Below, piece after piece: positions 2,425 to 29,272 of a stretch of 64,000 bases of DNA. Source of the DNA: an archaeon (GTDB taxonomy: Archaea > AGJL01 > Methanococci > Methanococcales > Methanocaldococcaceae); assembly GCA_024278985.1 (NCBI GenBank), contig JAJRSC010000015.1, positions 21,836 to 85,835 on the forward strand, written 5' to 3'. Under the pieces are notes generated by a model, which saw only the letters and a list, made by a program, of their open reading frames with translations, made no database searches and had not been told where the DNA came from. Every line of letters begins with the position of its first letter. Position 1 is the stretch's first letter. The position numbers and the translations under genes are program-made.

Positions 2425-3084
2425 TTATAAATTTTTATATTTGATATCTTTTATATAAATTTTAATTTCATAATTTTTTATAACTTCTTTGTAGGTATTA
2501 ATAGATTTTTTTACTGTCTCTTTAATATTTCCTTCTAAATTTGAAGTAGATACTTTTAGATTTTTTAATTCATAAATCAAATAACCCTCTGTTATATTTT
2601 TTGGAACTTTAAATATTAATAACCCAGTATAGGAAGTATAAGGTCTTAAATTTACCATTGTTAAACTATTTTCAACATCTAAATAATCCTCAGGATAATA
2701 TTTATTTCCACTATTATCTATAAAATAAAAATCTAAATTACTTACAAATAAAGGATAATTTCTATTATTATTAATTTCCAATTTTATAACTAAATAGGAT
2801 AAAGAATTATTTTCTATTTTTTTTGTTCCTAAGCTCCCTTTTATCTCATCAGTTTTATAAACATCAATTACCTTAATAGTTAGGTTATGAATAACTACAG
2901 GTTTTTCTTGTGTTGTATTTACTACTATAGGCTTTTGAGTTATTATAGATAATAACCCATCATTAGTATTATTTTTATTATCTTCATCTCCAAGAAAAGA
3001 GTTTATAAAATTAATTAGAGTGGCTCCTGAGAAGATTAATAAAATAAATAATACTAATAAATAAATTAATGTTCTGATTCCCAT
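2425..3084 (-). CDS. Membrane-anchored DUF4352-like protein
   Basis: N-terminal hydrophobic anchor; [35 protein letters not shown] pattern. Confidence 0.6.
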
Positions 3085-3491
3085 ACATCATCCCCAAAGA
3101 ATAATTTAATCTCCCTCTCTGCACTTTTTTTGGAATCAGAAGCATGAATAATATTTTCTGGTAGTTTTGTACCAAAATCTCCTCTTATAGTTCCTGGGTC
3201 TGCCTCAGTTGGGTCAGTCATCCCTATCATTTTTCTAACTACTGAAATAGCATTTTCCCCTTCAATAACCATTAAAACTATTCTCCCAGAAGTTATAAAA
3301 TTAATTAAATCCTCAAAAAAATCTTTTCCTTTATGTTCTTCATAGTATTTTTCGGCAAGTTCTCTATTTAATCTAACCATTTTCATAGCTATAATATCAA
3401 GCCCTTTATTTTCGAATCTTTCTATTATTTTTCCTATTAGTTTTCTTTTAACAGCATCTGGTTTTATAGCAACAAAAGTTTTTTCCTTCAT
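3066..3491 (-). CDS. ndk: Nucleoside diphosphate kinase
   Basis: [27 protein letters not shown] motifs. Confidence 0.97.
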
Positions 3492-5856: not shown

Positions 5857-6747
5857 ATGATTTCTGTTGTAGGCCATACTGCTGTAGATCATATATTTAA
5901 TATTGAGAAATTCCCAGAGCCAAATACATCCATTCAAATACCAACAGTTAAAAAATATTTTGGTGGAGCTGCTGCAAATGTCTCAGTTGCTATAAAAAAA
6001 CTTGGTTATAATTCTGAACTTATATCATGTGTTGGGTATGACTTTGAATTCTTAAATTATGAAAGTTATTTAAAAAATATTGGTGTAAATATTTCTAAGT
6101 TGTATTACTCTACTGAAGAGGAAACTCCTAAGGCATGGATATTTACTGATAAAGATAACAATCAAATGACATTCTTCTTATGGGGAGCCTCTAAGCACTT
6201 TAAAGATTTAAGTCCAGAATTGCCAGATGGAGAAATTATTCATATAGCTACAGGTGACCCTGAATATAACCTGAAAGTAGCCAAAAATAAAAAGGCTATT
6301 ATCTCCTTTGACCCAGGACAGGATTTACCTCAATATAGTAAAGATACTTTATTTAATATTATAAAAAATACTAACTTTTTATTTTTTAATAATTATGAAT
6401 TTGAGAAAGCCAGTAAATTATTAAATTTTGATATTAAAGATTATTTAAAATATGTTGATGCCCTTATAATTACTTATGGTAAAGAAGGAAGTAAAATATA
6501 TACAAAGGATAATATCATAAATATCCCATGCATAAAATCCAATGCTACTATTGACCCTACTGGAGCAGGAGATGCATATAGAGCTGGTTTTTTAGTTGGT
6601 TATCTTAAGTATAAAGATTTTTATAAAGCTGGATTATTGGGTTCAGCTGTTGCTTCTTTTGTTGTTGAAAAAAAAGGATGCCAAACTAATTTACCAACTT
6701 TTGATATGGTTTTAGAAAGATTAAAAAATAATGGTTATCAATTATAG
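5857..6747 (+). CDS. PfkB-family nucleoside kinase
   Basis: GGAAANV and DPTGAGDAYRAG motifs. Confidence 0.88.
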   Translation: MISVVGHTAVDHIFNIEKFPEPNTSIQIPTVKKYFGGAAANVSVAIKKLGYNSELISCVGYDFEFLNYESYLKNIGVNISKLYYSTEEETPKAWIFTDKDNNQMTFFLWGASKHFKDLSPELPDGEIIHIATGDPEYNLKVAKNKKAIISFDPGQDLPQYSKDTLFNIIKNTNFLFFNNYEFEKASKLLNFDIKDYLKYVDALIITYGKEGSKIYTKDNIINIPCIKSNATIDPTGAGDAYRAGFLVGYLKYKDFYKAGLLGSAVASFVVEKKGCQTNLPTFDMVLERLKNNGYQL

Positions 6748-21986: not shown

Positions 21987-23138
21987 CTAAAAGTTTTTAT
22001 ATGCCATAATAATTTCCTCAGGAGTATGTAACTCTCCTCCTATTTTTGGTACTAATTTAACCTTACATAATCCTTTACTTGCTCTTTCAACCTCTCTAAC
22101 TATCTGTCCTAAATTCATTTCAGGAACTATAATTTTTTCTGTTTTTTTGGCAACTTCATAAATTATTTCATCTGGAAATGGCCAAACAACATTTAATTTA
22201 ATATACCCTGCTGCTATATCCTGCTCTCTTAATTCTTTTACAGCAATTTCTCCTGCTCTTGAAGGAGAACCATAAGAAACTATAACAACATCAGAACAAT
22301 CATCTAAATATTCAGCAGTATAATCCCATATTTCTTTTTTATGTCTTAAAATCTTTTCATTTAATCTTTTTACTAATTTTGCATGTTCAACAGGGTCAGA
22401 AGCAGCATCTGGATATCCTTTTTCATTATGGGATAAACCAGTAACATGAACTCTATAGCCCTTACCAAATATTGGCATTTTTGGAATTAAATCATCATCT
22501 GGTTTAAATGGTAGTTCATTCATACCAACTTTTCTATTAATAATCTCTATGTTATCATAATCTGAGATAATTACTTTTTCTCTCATATGTCCAACAACTT
22601 CATCACTCATAACCATTACTGGAACTCTATATTTTTCAGCATAATTAAATGCTTTTATAGTATATTCAAAACATTCTTGGACTGAAGAAGGAGAAAGTGC
22701 AATTATTTGATAATCTCCATGACTTCCCCATTTTGCTTGCATCATGTCTCCTTGACTTGCTAAAGTTGGCTGTCCTGTTGAAGGACCTCCTCTTTGAACA
22801 TTTACAATTACACATGGTGTTTCTGTCATTACTGCATAACCAATATTTTCCTGCATTAAGCTAAATCCAGGGCCAGATGTGGCAGTCATAGACTTTAAAC
22901 CTGCCCATGATGCACCAATAACAGATGCTAAAGCACCAATTTCATCCTCCATTTGAACAAACTTTCCACCAATATGAGGTAATCTTAAGGCCATTCTTTC
23001 AGCAACTTCTGAGGATGGAGTTATTGGATAGCCTCCATAAAATTTACATCCTGCTACAATAGCACCCTCAGCTATAGCAATATTTCCCTGCATAAAATAT
23101 TTTCCAGGTTTTAATCTTCCTTTATCATCAAAATTCAT
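21987..23138 (-). CDS. korA: 2-oxoglutarate:ferredoxin oxidoreductase alpha subunit
   Basis: GYPITP, QMEDE, TATSGPG, RGGPSTGQPT, PEMNLGQ. Confidence 0.92.
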   Translation of the reverse strand: MNFDDKGRLKPGKYFMQGNIAIAEGAIVAGCKFYGGYPITPSSEVAERMALRLPHIGGKFVQMEDEIGALASVIGASWAGLKSMTATSGPGFSLMQENIGYAVMTETPCVIVNVQRGGPSTGQPTLASQGDMMQAKWGSHGDYQIIALSPSSVQECFEYTIKAFNYAEKYRVPVMVMSDEVVGHMREKVIISDYDNIEIINRKVGMNELPFKPDDDLIPKMPIFGKGYRVHVTGLSHNEKGYPDAASDPVEHAKLVKRLNEKILRHKKEIWDYTAEYLDDCSDVVIVSYGSPSRAGEIAVKELREQDIAAGYIKLNVVWPFPDEIIYEVAKKTEKIIVPEMNLGQIVREVERASKGLCKVKLVPKIGGELHTPEEIIMAYKNF

Positions 23139-23335
23139 TTTTTCACCACAGTAATTGCCTGGTCAGGACACATTAATTCACAAATTTTACAATATGTACA
23201 TCTACTTTCATCATCAACTTCTGAAGGGTAAACACCTTTTTTATTAAGCTCTTTAGAAATTGTAAATACTTTCTTAGGGCAAAATTCTATGCAAATATAA
23301 CATGCTTTACATAGTTCTTTATTTATGAATATCAT
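23135..23335 (-). CDS. korD: 2x[4Fe-4S] ferredoxin, delta subunit
   Basis: Two CxxCxxCxxxCP motifs, directly upstream of korA. Confidence 0.85.
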   Translation of the reverse strand: MIFINKELCKACYICIEFCPKKVFTISKELNKKGVYPSEVDDESRCTYCKICELMCPDQAITVVKK

Positions 23336-23612
23336 TCATTTCACCTAAAATAAAAATTGTTATCTCTATATTTTTAAGCTTAAAATAATATTTAAAAATT
23401 AAGAATTTTATGGAATTTATAAGAAACAATAAAAAATATTAGCAAAAATATTTAATATTAATTAATAGACTCAAAAGTTAAAATAAGACAACTATAAAAT
23501 TAGTAAAATCACATATATTATTATAAATTATTAACATGTTTTTGTTTTAGGTTATATATAAAAGAGGATATTTTAGCAATGTATAAAGTAAGAAAAAATA
23601 ACTATTTTTAAA

Positions 23613-24011
23613 ATGATATTATCAGTGGTTGGTATGGAAAATGAAAAAAATAGCTTAATAAAACTCTTTTGGATATTTCTTAGTGTATTTTTAGTATTAA
23701 TAATATTATCAATATCTGAATGGATGTATATAAATATAAGAATATATAATTATATAAAGATTACTTTTTTGATAGTTGGGATAACAATTAGTGCAATAAT
23801 TGTAGAATATATAATCCAATATAATATTTTTGAAAATAAAGGTGAGTTATCAAATATAGGGATTAATATAATATATTTAGCAATAGGTTATATTATATTT
23901 TCTCCAATAACTTTTGGAAATAAACTTATTATGATAGTTACTATACTTATTATTATATGCTTGCTTAGACATAATGATTATTTAAATTTTAAAAACATAC
24001 TAAAAAAGTAA
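23613..24011 (+). CDS. Orphan four-TM membrane protein (candidate immunity protein)
   Basis: Hydrophobic, extremely AT-rich ORF at the left edge of the accessory locus. Confidence 0.55.
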   Translation: MILSVVGMENEKNSLIKLFWIFLSVFLVLIILSISEWMYINIRIYNYIKITFLIVGITISAIIVEYIIQYNIFENKGELSNIGINIIYLAIGYIIFSPITFGNKLIMIVTILIIICLLRHNDYLNFKNILKK

Positions 24012-24045
24012 TAATACACTTAATAATGTGAAATCATAAAAAAAC

Positions 24046-24215
24046 GAAGAGTTGTTATTGATTATGGACTTTTAAAGGCTATGGAAGAAGTTGAGGATGA
24101 GGAGGAGATTGATAGAAACTGCTAAAAAGTTGTTAGAGTATTGAGGTAATGGAAGTATCTTTTAAAAATCTTTTATTAAAGATTTAACTTAAAAATATCC
24201 AGGGAAAGATAAAAT
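24046..24215 (+). pseudogene. Decayed relBE-type toxin-antitoxin remnant
   Basis: Frameshifted fragments IDYGLLKAMEEVEDEEEIDR..TAKKLLE (archaeal RelB-like) and, from ATG 24149, MEVSFK.SFIKDL..NIQGKIK (RelE-like N-terminus). Confidence 0.55.
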
Positions 24216-24235
24216 AATTTACTATTATAAATTAC

Positions 24236-24555
24236 TTTACTTTTTTATAACTATTAAAAATCTTAATAGGTAAAATATTTCCTTTTTATGCTTTACTATT
24301 CGATTAAAATCGTAATATATAGGGGTTTTGTTATTATTATTTAATGAAAAATGTAAAAAATAAAACTTTAAAAAAGTAAAGAATAGTTGGCGATGATACC
24401 TCGGTATAGAGGCGGAGCCAATATTAAGGGACTACCCAACCACCATAGAGGTGGCAAAATGAATATATTTAAAAGTAACATACTTAAAGGTTTCGCTGCT
24501 TTGATAATATTAGGAATGGTAGGAGCTTTAGTTGCTGAGCCAGTGGCTTTGGGAA
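24236..24555 (+). repeat. Direct repeat copy 1: promoter, structured leader and signal-peptide-coding region
   Basis: Closely matches 26680-27003; near-identical across the leader, and ATGGTAGGAGCTTTA..GCTGAGCCAGTGGCTTTGGGA is shared. Confidence 0.92.
24386..24454 (+). promoter_or_regulatory. Structured GC-rich RNA leader (kink-turn hairpin plus SD-occluding hairpin), copy 1
   Basis: TTGGC/GCCAA stem, GAT bulge, tandem GA/GA, CCTC/GAGG stem; then CCACC-ATAGA-GGTGG over the SD. Confidence 0.7.
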
Positions 24556-24770
24556 ATTTAGGTATAGTTTATGCAATAAAATCTTGGCATGAGGGAAATG
24601 TTAAGGGCTCTACAATTGGGGAAGGTTTAATGGATATAGGAAGTGCGGCTGTAACTGATGGCGTAGCTATATGGTTATCTGCTGAAGAAGCTTCCACAGT
24701 ATTATTAGCAGCAGGTATAGCAACTGGCGGAGTAGCATTAGCGGCAGTAGGTACTACAGTTATGGCTTAA
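24459..24770 (+). CDS. Secreted Gly/Ala-rich bacteriocin-like peptide A (103 aa)
   Basis: ATG 24459 follows GAGGTGG SD; signal peptide, AEPVALG, variable core, AEEA, hydrophobic LLAAGIATGGV tail. Confidence 0.75.
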   Translation: MNIFKSNILKGFAALIILGMVGALVAEPVALGNLGIVYAIKSWHEGNVKGSTIGEGLMDIGSAAVTDGVAIWLSAEEASTVLLAAGIATGGVALAAVGTTVMA

Positions 24771-24827
24771 TAATTCTTATTTTCCTTTTTATTTATTTTC
24801 ATAAATAACTTTATTTAATGTGATATT

Positions 24828-25109
24828 ATGCCGGATCTAATTATCATGCTATGGGTATTAACAATATTTCTTTCATTAATTGAGATTATACTATGGTATC
24901 GTTTATTGAAATTGGCTCCAAAAGAAAAAATGAATATATTGGTTAAATGTTTAGGATTAGGTGTATTATTTGCTGTAGTAAAACATTTGTTATTTAATGA
25001 CTACACTGTTATTTCAATTATTAAAGACATTACTTTATATTCTGTTATCTTTATGTCCATATTGTTTTCATATTATAAATTTATAATAAAAAGAGTATGG
25101 CATGTTTAG
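24828..25109 (+). CDS. Small three-TM membrane protein, candidate immunity partner of peptide A
   Basis: 93 aa hydrophobic, basic ORF directly downstream; GTGA SD. Confidence 0.65.
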   Translation: MPDLIIMLWVLTIFLSLIEIILWYRLLKLAPKEKMNILVKCLGLGVLFAVVKHLLFNDYTVISIIKDITLYSVIFMSILFSYYKFIIKRVWHV

Positions 25110-25355
25110 CCGAGCTATTGGATTTGGGAGATATATCAGCTTACTATTTGTATAAACACTCAAAAAATGGGGAGTATAGTAGCGCCGTTAAGGATGCTAA
25201 ACAATTGTATAAGTGTTATAAGTGGGGAAGATTAGGGATATTCAGCCTTAGAATTGGTTGCCGAAGAAGCGGTAGTTGAAGATGGTCTTTTAGCAGCAGG
25301 AATAGCTACTGGTGGAGTGGGATTAATAGCATTGGGAGTAGGGATAGGATTGTAA
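25109..25355 (+). pseudogene. Headless (orphan) peptide cassette with one frameshift
   Basis: Begins AELLDLGDI (homologous to AEPVALGDI); after a shift near 25233 it reads SALELVAEEAVVEDGLLAAGIATGGVGLIALGVGIGL-stop; no signal peptide or leader. Confidence 0.75.
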
Positions 25356-25429
25356 GAGCCTAATAATTTAATTTTAATTTTTTTAATTTTTGTGTAAATA
25401 TTCCCGAATTTAGTTTTATTATTGGTGAG

Positions 25430-25633
25430 ATGATGATGAGTAAAAAAGGGAATAAAAAATATTTTTTAAAATATTTTTTATTTTTAACAGTAAATACAAT
25501 AATTATAACTTTTCTTTTATCATATAACTTTAAGAATATATATCTAAATATATTTATGTTAAGCTTTGTCATAATAATCGATATTATATGGATGCGTATA
25601 TTAGCTAATAAATCTCAAAACAGAAACTTGTGA
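25430..25633 (+). CDS. Small two-TM membrane protein, candidate immunity partner of the orphan cassette
   Basis: GGTGA SD; basic N-terminus and two hydrophobic helices. Confidence 0.6.
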   Translation: MMMSKKGNKKYFLKYFLFLTVNTIIITFLLSYNFKNIYLNIFMLSFVIIIDIIWMRILANKSQNRNL

Positions 25634-25637
25634 AACC

Positions 25638-26172
25638 ATGAAAAAACTACCACCAATACTAACAATATCTATTTTCATAATTGGTTTTATTCTAGGAGTT
25701 GTATCAATAAATAACTTATCAAAAATCAACAATAGTGATATACCTAACTTTAAACCTAAAATACAATTTAATTTCCCTACAATCTTATTAAACAACTTAA
25801 AAGTTATCTTTTTAATGCTATCAGGAGCTATAACCTTCGGTTTATCCACTTTTATAAATCTACTATTCAACGGTTTTAATGTTGGTATCTTAATCGGCTC
25901 TACATTCCTAACTAACGAACCGTTAAAATTAATAACCGCCTTAATCCTCCCACACGGCATATTCGAAATTCCAGCAATTATCAGCTACAGCGGGCTTTAA
26001 AATACCTTATGAAGTTATCCAATACCTAAGGGATAAAAAAGAAAAACCAATAACAGAGGAAGATATAAAAGAATTCTTAAAACTATCTTTAATCTCAATA
26101 ATTTTGATTATTATAGCTGCTTTTGTTGAGGTTTATATAACCCCAAAAATAGCTAATTATCTGCTAACATAA
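25638..26172 (+). CDS. DUF95/SpoIIM-family membrane protein; frameshift at ~25980
   Basis: ILLNNLKV, NGFNVG, ILPHGIFEIPA; second frame SATAGFKIP...AAFVEVYITP to TAA 26170-26172. Confidence 0.85.
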
Positions 26173-26231
26173 GATTTAAATAGATAATTGAGGAATAGGA
26201 ATAATGAAACTAAAGATTAGGTGATTTAAAA

Positions 26232-26444
26232 ATGAAGACTGTCAAATTTAGGGTTTATTATGATGGGGAATATTGGATTGCAGAGGGTATTGATGTAAGC
26301 ATATTCACACAGGGGAAAACTTTAGATGAATTGATGAAAAATCTTAAAGAGGCTGTTGAATTGCACTTTGAAGATGAGTTAAAAGCTGGGGAGGTTATAA
26401 AAATCCTTTCTGTTTCTGAGATGGAGGTGTCAAGTGTTGCCTAA
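26232..26444 (+). CDS. hicB: HicB-family antitoxin
   Basis: YWIAE..IFTQGKTLDELMKNLKEAVELH signature. Confidence 0.85.
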   Translation: MKTVKFRVYYDGEYWIAEGIDVSIFTQGKTLDELMKNLKEAVELHFEDELKAGEVIKILSVSEMEVSSVA

Positions 26445-26679
26445 ACTTCCAGTTGTTAGTGGCAAGGACTTAATAAAATTTCTTAAAAAATTAGGTTATG
26501 AAGTCGTTAGGCAGAGAGGGAGTCATGTGAGATTAAGAAAAGAGACGGAATTTGGAATTCACAATATAACAATCCCTTATCATGAAGAGATAGCAAAAGG
26601 AACTTTAAACGCTATTTTAACCGACATTTCTAAATGGAACAACATTTCAAAGGAAGAGTTAATAAAAAAATTAAAGTAA
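26434..26679 (+). CDS. hicA: HicA-family mRNA interferase toxin
   Basis: LKKLGY..RQRGSH..IPYH.EIAKGTL.AIL. Confidence 0.9.
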   Translation: MLPKLPVVSGKDLIKFLKKLGYEVVRQRGSHVRLRKETEFGIHNITIPYHEEIAKGTLNAILTDISKWNNISKEELIKKLK

Positions 26680-27003
26680 TTTACTTTTTTATAATTATTA
26701 AAAATTCTAATGAGGAACATATTTCCTTTTTTTATACTTTACTATTTGATTAAAATCGTTATATATATAGGGGTTTTGTTATTATTATTTAATGAAAAAT
26801 GTAGAAAATAAAACTTTAAAAAATTAAAGAATAGTTGGCGATGATGCCTCGGTATAGAGGCGGAGCCAATATTAAGGGACTACCCAACCACCATAGAGGT
26901 GGCAATATGAAATTTTTAGAGAAGGGAGTATATAAGATTTTCGGAGCTATGGTTTTAGTAAGCATGGTAGGAGCTTTAATTGCTGAGCCAGTGGCTTTGG
27001 GAG
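26680..27003 (+). repeat. Direct repeat copy 2: promoter, structured leader and signal-peptide-coding region
   Basis: Matches 24236-24555; begins right at the hicA stop. Confidence 0.92.
26834..26902 (+). promoter_or_regulatory. Structured GC-rich RNA leader (kink-turn plus SD hairpin), copy 2
   Basis: Identical to copy 1 except one A>G that creates a G-C pair in the k-turn NC stem. Confidence 0.7.
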
Positions 27004-27206
27004 ATATTGGATACTATGCAGGAAAAGAATTGGCAGGAGAATCAGGAAGTGTTGTAGAAAGTTATCTCGGAACAAAAGCTGGAGAATATGCTGGTGAAAA
27101 TGCGGCTATATTATTGGCAGAATTATTTGCTGAGGAAGGAGCAGAAGCAGGAACTATTGCAGGACCTATCGGTATGGTAGTTGGAGGTATAGCTGGAGCA
27201 CTATAA
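26907..27206 (+). CDS. Secreted Gly/Ala-rich bacteriocin-like peptide B (99 aa)
   Basis: Same signal/AEPVALG head, different core, AEEG, Gly-zipper tail AGPIGMVVGGIAGAL. Confidence 0.75.
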   Translation: MKFLEKGVYKIFGAMVLVSMVGALIAEPVALGDIGYYAGKELAGESGSVVESYLGTKAGEYAGENAAILLAELFAEEGAEAGTIAGPIGMVVGGIAGAL

Positions 27207-27259
27207 ATTCTTCTTTTTATATATTTTTATATATTTAAACTTTTTATGGGGTGATTAAA

Positions 27260-27583
27260 ATGGCAAACACTTGGGTGATTGTTAGTTTTATAATAGTATA
27301 TGCATTATTAGTTCCATGGGTTGTTAATTGGATACTTCTAAAAAGGAAAATTAATTTTTTAAAATCTTTACATTATTTTGAGAAAAAATTCAGCATTAAA
27401 GAAAAAATTTTTATAACAATTATTGAACTCATTCCAGTATTTTTCTTTTTATACTCATATATTCAAATGAGTAGAAATTTGTCTATATTATATGGTATAT
27501 TTTATTTATGTTTAGGTATTTTGGTTGTCTTTCTATTAGATTACATATTAAAGACGACGTTTATTAAATATAAGAACCAATAA
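27260..27583 (+). CDS. Three-TM membrane protein, candidate immunity partner of peptide B
   Basis: GGGGTGA SD before ATG 27260; hydrophobic and basic; no visible similarity to the other partners. Confidence 0.65.
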   Translation: MANTWVIVSFIIVYALLVPWVVNWILLKRKINFLKSLHYFEKKFSIKEKIFITIIELIPVFFFLYSYIQMSRNLSILYGIFYLCLGILVVFLLDYILKTTFIKYKNQ

Positions 27584-27790
27584 GGGATTTACAACGACTA
27601 AAATTTTAATTATTATTAATATTATTATTAATAATTTTTAGTAAATATTATTAGGTAAATGAAACAAAATTTTGTATAAATAAAGTCCATTTTTATATAA
27701 AAATATTTAATTATTATTAAATTAGATAAATAAATATAAAATCTATATATACCTCTATTTTTAATATATCTTAAAAGGTTGTTAAGGTGA

Positions 27791-29272
<1,482 letters not shown>

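Follow-up and report, generated by a model that had tools for sequence, protein, structure and literature searches.

Candidate bacteriocin/immunity-like cassettes behind a covarying K-turn leader in Methanococcales, with a displaced and eroded array beside guaB

Membrane proteins of arCOG01996 were reported to cluster with other membrane proteins in Methanococcales, with a SalXY-related ABC transporter alongside (Makarova et al. 2014, PMC4158269), and three- or four-gene cassettes typified by Metvu_0322, Metvu_0323 as well as Metvu_0325 (Yip1, SpoIIM and arCOG09673) have also been described, with parts of the system variably present (Makarova et al. 2015, PMC5898192). The passages of the two papers that deal with these loci treat the peptides as membrane proteins with three transmembrane (TM) segments and propose defence or membrane remodelling, section 3.3 of PMC5898192 favouring membrane remodelling or vesicle formation for the cassettes; toxin/immunity function, co-variation, orphan partners, constant junctions and a kink-turn (K-turn) leader are not set out in those passages. 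Here we report on a locus of this class, described from Methanococci, Thermococci and Archaeoglobi, in a 64,000-nucleotide (nt) stretch of contig JAJRSC010000015.1 from a Methanocaldococcaceae genome (assembly GCA_024278985.1, 86% complete); the whole stretch is called the window below. An array of small peptide genes, each followed by a gene for a small membrane protein, lies there on the + strand between genes for 2-oxoacid:ferredoxin oxidoreductase and the gene for IMP dehydrogenase (guaB). The locus is less new than a preliminary description of this DNA had assumed: it adds a displaced, eroded copy to a class that is known, though uncharacterised, and had already been described as variable membrane-protein cassettes. 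What appears new is the logic of the cassettes and the K-turn leader. Our literature search returned no paper on MJ0792-MJ0795 and none on the arCOG numbers beyond the two cited above. It likewise turned up no peptide antimicrobial characterised in Methanococcales, and the preliminary description knew of none; these loci may already have been read as toxin/immunity systems elsewhere in print, and the other points missing from those passages may have been published too.

Two further bodies of work bear on the locus. Circular-bacteriocin gene clusters combine a small hydrophobic helical precursor, a DUF95/SpoIIM protein, an ABC ATP-binding protein, a small hydrophobic immunity protein and, in part of the cases, a YIP1 protein; one B. 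cereus cluster unites a small immunity gene with a YIP1 protein and with an ABC transporter. Upon loss of the DUF95 protein, mature leucocyclicin Q stays inside the cells, and neither survey makes any mention of archaea (PMC8534725, PMC7132975). In archaea, L7Ae represses translation via K-turns located in 5′ untranslated regions (Daume et al. 2017, PMC5539422).

From the sequence comparisons presented below, we give a bacteriocin/immunity-like function of the cassettes an even chance, what is left being shared among recognition, anti-virus defence and a membrane complex. In this model, each unit possesses its own promoter and a structured leader, composed of a K-turn hairpin and a hairpin sequestering the Shine-Dalgarno (SD) sequence, and encodes a precursor of ~100 amino acids (aa) whose constant head is most likely a Sec-type signal peptide, putatively cleaved before the motif (E/T)PVALG. 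The mature product of ~75 aa, in which a helical core specific to the type is joined to a hydrophobic tail rich in Gly/Ala, would be a bacteriocin-like toxin ('archaeocin') acting in or on membranes. The variable open reading frame (ORF) with 2-4 TM segments directly downstream would encode the cognate immunity protein, and the SpoIIM/DUF95 protein of the array, together with Yip1 and a MacB/LolD-type ABC block, would process or export the peptide or add protection.

Peptide heads, cores and membrane partners

A profile built from 34 sequences (alignment A2) detected the peptide family in 17 of the 40 Methanococcales genomes sampled. Genera are labelled g1 to g5, and L-numbers denote loci taken from these genomes. 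The family was found in the window genome plus 10 of the 16 others of g1, in 3 of 13 genomes of g3, in the single genome of g4 and in both genomes of g5; in the seven genomes of g2, neither the family nor the leader described below was found. Between one and seven copies are present per genome. Among 1.84 billion proteins, 43 representatives at 50% identity reach E<=0.001; 36 of the 37 inspected display the Methanococcales-type head or its C-terminal part and, between them, many distinct cores, the 37th (P0042) being an unrelated repeat protein. Members are named only 'hypothetical protein' (e.g. MJ0792, Metin_1317, Metvu_0325 and Metig_1067); by the names of these entries, M. jannaschii (MJ0792), M. 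infernus, M. vulcanius, Methanotorris igneus and Methanococcus aeolicus are among the cultured carriers. Both intact members in the window, pep1 and pep3, have a hydrophobic head followed by the motif AEPVALG, a core unlike that of the other, an acidic AEE motif and a hydrophobic Gly/Ala tail. Across the family, the AEE(A/G) motif of the preliminary description proved only semi-conserved.

In relatives, a unit made up of the peptide gene (~100 aa), a variable 2-4-TM ORF and a SpoIIM gene (~180 aa) is repeated one to six times. Most arrays end with genes for Yip1 (PF04893, 2e-30), for a protein of ~500 aa that no Pfam family matches and for an ABC ATPase (PF00005, 9e-39), and adjoin argH. Among NCBIfam models, MacB, DarD, LolD and 'putative bacteriocin export ABC' fit the ATPase best, though none reaches its cut-off. 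Several arrays are also interspersed with genes for ATPases of ~340-370 aa beginning MKF(F/Y)NREKE, which from inspection by eye we take to be of the archaeal ATPase type, often beside truncated SpoIIM fragments (L043 3961-5043; L047 8030-9127 and 11711-12820; L050 4538-5551; L053 ~923-2042); the window has none.

To relate cores to partners, 42 profile hits of at least 35 bits were reduced to the 39 with a length of 75-130 aa, leaving out one 270-aa protein and two truncated genes, and a membrane ORF starting no more than 160 nt downstream was taken automatically as the partner. This rule was satisfied by 35 of the 39 peptides, yielding 35 cassettes from 16 genomes; the remaining four had an overlapping, a longer or no partner, and in the row for L063 it is SpoIIM that was entered as the partner. 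Similarity between cores proved strongly correlated with similarity between the downstream partners (Mantel r=0.86, a value attained in 0 of 5000 permutations), including in pairs of cassettes from different families (r=0.85). All 16 pairs with similar partners fall among the 37 pairs with similar cores, and none of the 558 core-dissimilar pairs has similar partners. The correlation between head and core, in contrast, was only r=0.11. Pairs from the same genome had a head score of 0.87 vs a core score of 0.12, and similar cores occurred in none of 30 such pairs; heads follow the genome, not the core. The pep3/imm3 pair of the window exemplifies this pattern, its core and partner being 70% and 52% identical, respectively, to those of a pair in a genome of another family. 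Cores vary between and within genomes while heads are constant, and core and downstream membrane gene co-vary; two of the outcomes by which the preliminary description said its idea would be refuted, conserved cores and a lack of co-variation, were therefore not observed.

The third gene of the unit is partly included in this co-variation. SpoIIM similarity correlated with core similarity at r=0.54 (23 cassettes). Upon splitting SpoIIM at a conserved motif in 17 cassettes, five divergent ones without a match to the motif being dropped, the N-terminal part correlated with the core (r=0.43, 0 of 5000) and the last 76 residues were near constant (mean score 0.90). In line with this division, DNA comparisons of cassettes that otherwise differ revealed conservation of SpoIIM in its 3′ third as well as of the promoter between the genes, the leader and the head. 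With the C-terminal end of SpoIIM, promoter, leader and head constant, the exchangeable block consists of the core, the partner and the N-terminal part of SpoIIM. Cassettes comprising the core, the partner and the N-terminal two thirds of SpoIIM appear to be exchanged by recombination between constant junctions formed by the SpoIIM C-terminus, the promoter, the leader and the head.

Partner genes were also found to outlive the peptide genes. We counted 17 homologues of cassette partners (E<=1e-5) with no intact peptide gene within 200 nt upstream, including runs of five in L050 and three in L044; a further 32 'orphan' rows corresponded to SpoIIM genes and were excluded. A dead peptide gene next to an intact partner was observed in four cases, namely pep2/imm2 of the window, L042, L059 and L082. 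In L042, a peptide fragment (2920-3154) is followed by a 137-aa partner that is 68% identical to a partner in another genome. In L082 (G003:C1:1283000-1291000, reverse strand), an intact K-turn leader precedes a peptide gene of only 27 codons, followed in this order by an intact partner ORF, SpoIIM, Yip1, the ~500-aa protein and the ABC ATPase, such that this genome has kept only what would be the 'immunity side'. No clear instance of the converse, an intact peptide gene with a decayed partner, was encountered in the loci examined. Mainly because such asymmetric decay is typical of toxin/immunity pairs, a toxin/immunity function is preferred over a structural or recognition complex. A non-lethal role in kin recognition or surface compatibility, in which peptide and partner would serve as type-specific tags in aggregation, fusion or DNA exchange, nevertheless accounts for the constant head and variable core, the strict core/partner pairing, the presence of one of each type per genome and the sharing of types across genera as well as toxicity does, and no toxin domain was recognised in the peptides. 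We consider it unlikely, since the 17 orphan partners and the decay of peptide genes beside intact partners make up the classic pattern of immunity genes and are less easily accounted for by a recognition tag of two parts, and DUF95, Yip1 and ABC ATPase together are a gene set of bacteriocin clusters.

Searches for relatives of known function were negative. Neither the peptides nor the partner ORFs produced a significant match in Pfam, NCBIfam or PADLOC, and the peptide profile gave no hit at E<=10 among PDB chains; a profile match to a known structural family, the third refuting outcome named in the preliminary description, was thus not found either. A Transgly_assoc match to pep1 (E=0.019) was discarded, being below the cut-off and located in the head. 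The best score in the ESM Atlas (0.86) was below lead level, and the glycine-zipper and colicin rows at 0.79-0.81 do not count as evidence. The predicted complex of imm3 with mature pep3, run without controls, scored 0.01. A word-index search with pep1 retrieved only pep1 itself and one match restricted to the head, and the public sequencing runs found were two DNA runs, both of the same study (share of words 0.07), and no RNA run. Given a 'KG' ahead of the hydrophobic stretch, a signal of class III (prepilin-type) was considered; it was rejected since other residues can take the place of the G (K-(G/I/V)-F). A small number of larger ORFs (256-391 aa), whose bodies are unrelated, likewise stand behind this K-turn leader and head, so that the head is best read as a general export signal. 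These ORFs, which may represent bigger exported members of the same regulon or larger toxins, were noted at L051 6338-7150 (- strand; followed by a 7-TM ORF), G016:C1:566284 and 650226, G007:C1:1281536, G038:C37:2550 and G026:C1:441203.

The K-turn leader and the Shine-Dalgarno hairpin

Nearly every peptide gene is preceded by the RNA motif UUGGC-GAU-GA-(stem-loop)-GA-GCCAA, which displays the anatomy of a K-turn: a canonical (C) stem, a 3-nt bulge, tandem G.A/A.G pairs and a covarying stem-loop in the position of the non-canonical (NC) stem. The GA...GA dinucleotides are invariant in all 30 distinct hairpins, and the bulge reads GAU in 26 and UGU in four. Two pairs of the NC stem covary, one being CG in 14, AU in 13 and GC in 2 hairpins and the other AU in 15, CG in 10 and UA in 5. 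Pairing was found in 87% of the cells, compared to 76% upon shuffling (0 of 500 shuffles as high) and 26-48% when the partner column was slid. A covariance model of the motif (R1) finds exactly two sites in the window genome, both of them peptide leaders, and matches in 17 of the 40 genomes, 16 of which carry the peptide family. Some leaders harbor a tandem pair of K-turn hairpins. An Rfam scan of positions 23000-28000 (E<=10) yielded nothing for the leader, and only a chance thermometer hit inside an oxidoreductase gene. A C/D box guide small RNA was considered and rejected, given that the hairpin spans only 33-43 nt and has neither a second box pair nor a guide region.

Downstream of the K-turn, the SD sequence is fully paired in the minimum free energy (MFE) fold of 22 of 31 unique leaders, as against a fraction of 0.32 for shuffled upstream sequence, and the anti-SD strand changes along with the SD (CCACC/GGUGG in some leaders, CUCCUU/AAGGAG in others). 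The SD-sequestering hairpin is regarded as tentative because helices of 4-6 base pairs are weak at the growth temperature. L7Ae is predicted to bind the K-turn, and the peptide leader is probably under L7Ae control.

The array in the window

In the window, the array is bounded by the small 4Fe-4S subunit gene of 2-oxoacid:ferredoxin oxidoreductase (23135-23335, - strand) and by guaB (27797-29272). These flanks, and the lack of an integrase-like ORF in the 21.5-30 kb interval, are as the preliminary description had them; the base composition of the locus is not distinct from that of its flanks and bears no island signature. All genes and elements described next are on the + strand. The first ORF (23613-24011; 132 aa, 4 TM segments, no Pfam match) has no peptide gene upstream of it and is a candidate stand-alone partner or immunity gene; a weak homologue in L042 (9851-10231; 29% identity, E=3.5e-14) lies directly 3′ of a peptide gene. 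It is followed by what remains of a RelB-like antitoxin gene, a piece of its 3′ part (24038-24140) that is 81% identical at the DNA level to L043 6399-6591, where the RelB-like ORF (6311-6505; PF18506, E=6.5e-20) is intact and located between two cassettes.

Pep1 and pep3 are each introduced by one copy of a ~240-nt direct repeat (24228-24463 and 26672-26911, 85-97% identical, and 97% over the central 149 nt) which encompasses promoter, leader and head. Its promoter portions (24228-24384, AT-rich, for pep1 and 26672-26832 for pep3; direct repeats D1, D3 and D6, 85-97% identical) correspond to a region that is also conserved 5′ of peptide genes in other genomes. In the first copy, the K-turn hairpin (24385-24423; R1 52.5 bits, E=2.1e-12; fold z=-3.06) is followed, just 5′ of the start codon, by the SD-pairing hairpin CCACC...GGUGG of the MFE fold (24440-24454). 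The pep1 precursor (24459-24770; 103 aa; family profile 98.8 bits) opens with a signal-peptide-like head (residues 1-26) and AEPVALG, continues into a core that is unique and closes with the Gly/Ala tail; it is alone in its 90%-identity cluster. Its candidate cognate partner imm1 (24828-25109; 93 aa, 3 TM segments) has no close homologue among the sampled loci, the best being 34% identical (E=0.002). In the second copy, the K-turn hairpin (26833-26871; R1 55.6 bits, E=2.2e-13) precedes an SD-sequestering hairpin (26888-26902) whose sequence is identical to that of pep1. The pep3 precursor (26907-27206; 99 aa) is 70% identical to L051 4320-4571 (alignment A3), and its core type recurs in two genomes belonging to another family. 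Imm3 (27251-27583; 3 TM segments, probable start ATG at 27260), the candidate cognate partner, is 52% identical to L051 4633-4989, which sits behind a pep3-type gene with a head of a different kind; further relatives of imm3 are L058 968-1324 and the orphan L044 13038-13379.

The second module is defective. Pep2 (25107-25355), 77% identical in DNA to the intact gene L053 198-486 and with a core 71% identical over 34 aa to that of L042 8192-8509, is devoid of start codon, leader and signal peptide, begins at the AE..LG motif where it overlaps the stop codon of imm1, and is interrupted by an in-frame stop (25277-25279) resulting from a 1-nt insertion/frameshift relative to intact relatives. Behind this dead gene, imm2 (25430-25633; 67 aa, 2 TM segments) is intact. 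Its homologues L050 7707-7919 and L042 2698-2904 (60-65% identity) likewise have no intact peptide gene upstream, and a weak similarity (E=0.008) links it to the L053 partner that accompanies the intact gene of pep2 type. The array-type SpoIIM/DUF95 gene that follows (25638-26172; PF01944, E=1.8e-18, match at 25638-26000) is 88% identical to the array SpoIIM at L042 3587-4123 and is also a pseudogene: relative to 14 of the 14 homologue alignments listed, it has suffered a 5-bp deletion near position 25978, its C-terminal part running on in another frame to 26172, and a whole-genome scan shows the gene split in two. Next come HicB (26232-26444; DUF5395 25.1 bits, cut-off 25; HicB_lk_antitox 23.4 bits, below the cut-off of 27) and HicA (26434-26679; HicA_toxin PF07927, E=5.1e-18), overlapping by 11 nt. 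Elsewhere, HicAB genes are situated 5′ of a peptide gene in L049 and L046 and 3′ of peptide and partner in L055. The window HicB is identical in all 70 residues to L049 3907-4119, from a genome of another family, and the stretch from SpoIIM through HicBA and promoter to head is 85% identical in DNA to L049 over 1423 nt, which hints at recent transfer of array segments between genera. Of the three paralogous modules in the preliminary description, two therefore stand as intact paralogues and one turns out to be a headless, frameshifted pseudogene. A different small membrane ORF does lie behind each (imm1, imm2 and imm3), and the interleaving of DUF95/SpoIIM and toxin-antitoxin genes holds for PF01944, HicAB and the RelB-like remnant, with the qualification that SpoIIM is broken.

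The array of the window is both incomplete and at an unusual site, as its genome has no array at argH and no detectable Yip1. It is possible, if doubtful, that the locus is an inactive relic which moved away from the usual argH/Yip1-ABC site and lost SpoIIM and one peptide gene, a question whose probability stands independently of those attached to the function of the system. In addition to the pep2 pseudogene, the deletion in SpoIIM and the vacant argH locus, no SpoIIM gene follows pep3/imm3 and no Yip1 homologue was found in the genome, whose assembly is only 86% complete. On the other side, the frames of pep1, imm1, pep3 and imm3 are open, the near identity of the two promoters and leaders over 149 nt would be unexpected for drifting relics, and a stand-alone SpoIIM paralogue is present on contig C21. 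This paralogue (G000:C21:6635-7120; L066 1390-2010) is intact, 206 aa long and located beside an HMG-CoA reductase-like gene. SpoIIM genes behind pep3-type cassettes are also split or truncated in L058 (1369-1865) and L051 (5013-5285). The guaB neighborhoods of five relatives (L077-L081) contained neither the oxidoreductase genes nor PCNA within 1.5 kb in any case; the chromosome part around guaB is rearranged among these genomes and that of the window, and because local synteny differs anyway, the comparison is uninformative as to insertion of the array.

The cassettes and known systems

Beyond the window, the association with DUF95 proves stronger than the preliminary description had noted, relatives carrying one SpoIIM gene per peptide plus the Yip1/ABC block. 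At least two SpoIIM matches were found in 16 of the 17 peptide-bearing genomes vs 4 of the 23 others, three of these four being weak hits to longer ORFs, and 39 of the 40 genomes encode a separate stand-alone SpoIIM paralogue distinct from the array type. The Yip1 block is present in 15 of the 17 peptide-bearing genomes. As the genomes are related, neither the SpoIIM nor the Yip1 counts are independent.

Several observations weigh against a bacteriocin/immunity-like function. Co-variation of core and partner is expected from linkage alone and thus shows that the two travel together, not what they do. The Yip1/ABC block also occurs in 7 of the 23 genomes without the peptide family and is thus not exclusive to it, so that its adjacency to the arrays could reflect a shared insertion site. 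No cassette protein matches a known bacteriocin or immunity family in Pfam, NCBIfam or PADLOC or, for the peptides, in PDB; the AlphaFold2 model of pep1 (34 sequences) is all-helical but of low confidence (predicted local distance difference test 55); and signal-peptide cleavage was judged by eye. The archaeal heads resemble Sec signals, unlike the leaders of circular bacteriocins, and most of the archaeal cores, which span 53-104 aa, exceed the 58-70 aa that are usual for circular bacteriocins. Finally, with SpoIIM broken and no Yip1 homologue found in the 86%-complete assembly, the system may be inactive in the window genome. The exchangeable antimicrobial or kin-recognition system of the preliminary description therefore gains from the co-variation, the orphan partners and the decayed peptide genes, and is held back by linkage and by the decay of the window copy.

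A membrane-associated defence against viruses or mobile elements, as proposed by Makarova et al. (2014), in which an arms race involving for instance receptor masking or abortive infection would drive diversification, agrees with the high variability of the cassettes and with the toxin-antitoxin and AAA ATPase genes interleaved in the arrays. It is quite unlikely in our estimation: none of 5027 PADLOC defence models was matched, it predicts neither that exported peptide and membrane partner are strictly paired nor that orphan partners survive, and the SalXY/MacB-type ABC points to peptide transport. A housekeeping-like membrane-remodelling, vesicle or secretion complex of SpoIIM, Yip1 and small membrane proteins with the peptides as fast-evolving subunits, in which section 3.3 of PMC5898192 places Metvu_0322, Metvu_0323 as well as Metvu_0325 by analogy with SpoIIM and Yip1p, is very unlikely in view of the patchy distribution (17 of 40 genomes, none of the seven of g2), the copy number of one to seven, the frequent decay, the many discrete core types (43 representatives at 50% identity) and the separate conserved SpoIIM of 39 genomes.

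Returning to the bacteriocin/immunity-like function, a more specific version of it would make the cassettes archaeal counterparts of circular bacteriocins, with hyperthermostable peptides, in which DUF95 maturation, Yip1/ABC export, cassette swapping and L7Ae-gated translation through the K-turn operate jointly. The cassette-specific DUF95 protein might then ligate the (E/T)PVALG N-terminus head-to-tail with the Gly/Ala tail, and gating by L7Ae would make the production of these weapons depend on how ribosome and ribonucleoprotein assembly is proceeding; we hold this combination to be a long shot. Archaeal antagonism is in general poorly known. If the toxin/immunity function is correct, the peptides would be the first bacteriocin-like weapons of hyperthermophilic methanogens. 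They would form a natural collection of dozens, small, heat-stable and active on membranes, in which every peptide has its own protector, and would provide a cross-domain link for the DUF95/SpoIIM proteins, enigmatic in their role in circular-bacteriocin production. This function can be tested in the cultured carrier strains, and hosts of g2 could serve as naive recipients.

Among described loci, the window array belongs with those of arCOG01996 (PMC4158269, PMC5898192), from which it has a SpoIIM/DUF95 paralogue, albeit broken, inside a cassette, and peptides in the profile family of Metvu_0325, the example of arCOG09673 (P0004, E=1.4e-24). It differs from them by its genomic site and by the absence from the locus of Yip1 (arCOG02054) and the SalXY-type ABC ATPase, both of which are present in relatives.

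Polymorphic toxin/immunity loci with orphan modules include CdiA-CT/CdiI, Rhs and class II microcins. The archaeal cassettes share with such loci a constant N-terminal part, a variable C-terminal part and a putative cognate gene directly downstream, as well as headless orphan copies, stand-alone immunity-type genes and types common to several species. In contrast to those loci, the archaeal peptides are tiny (~75 aa once mature) and display no recognisable toxin domain, their export would probably proceed via Sec and DUF95/ABC and not through a dedicated large secretion system, and the variable block includes part of SpoIIM. Circular bacteriocins of Bacillota (AS-48, leucocyclicin Q, B. cereus cyc) resemble the archaeal arrays in gene content, precursor, DUF95 and ATP-binding protein being clustered in relatives of the window genome, whereas in the window DUF95 is broken and no ABC ATPase lies in the locus. 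They differ in that the archaeal peptides bear no sequence similarity to solved bacteriocins (0 PDB hits) and are encoded, in an archaeal host, by tandem cassettes with one DUF95 gene per peptide.

For the leader, the closest known system is the control of translation by L7Ae and K-turns (Daume et al. 2017, PMC5539422; Huang et al. 2019, PMC6298567), from which it departs in that the K-turn stands at the 5′ end of peptide mRNAs, sometimes as two in tandem, and the SD sequence lies in a separate downstream hairpin instead of inside the K-turn stem. This combination of a covarying K-turn leader with an SD hairpin is among the parts that appear new, and the peptide mRNAs would constitute a second natural class of mRNA under probable L7Ae control.

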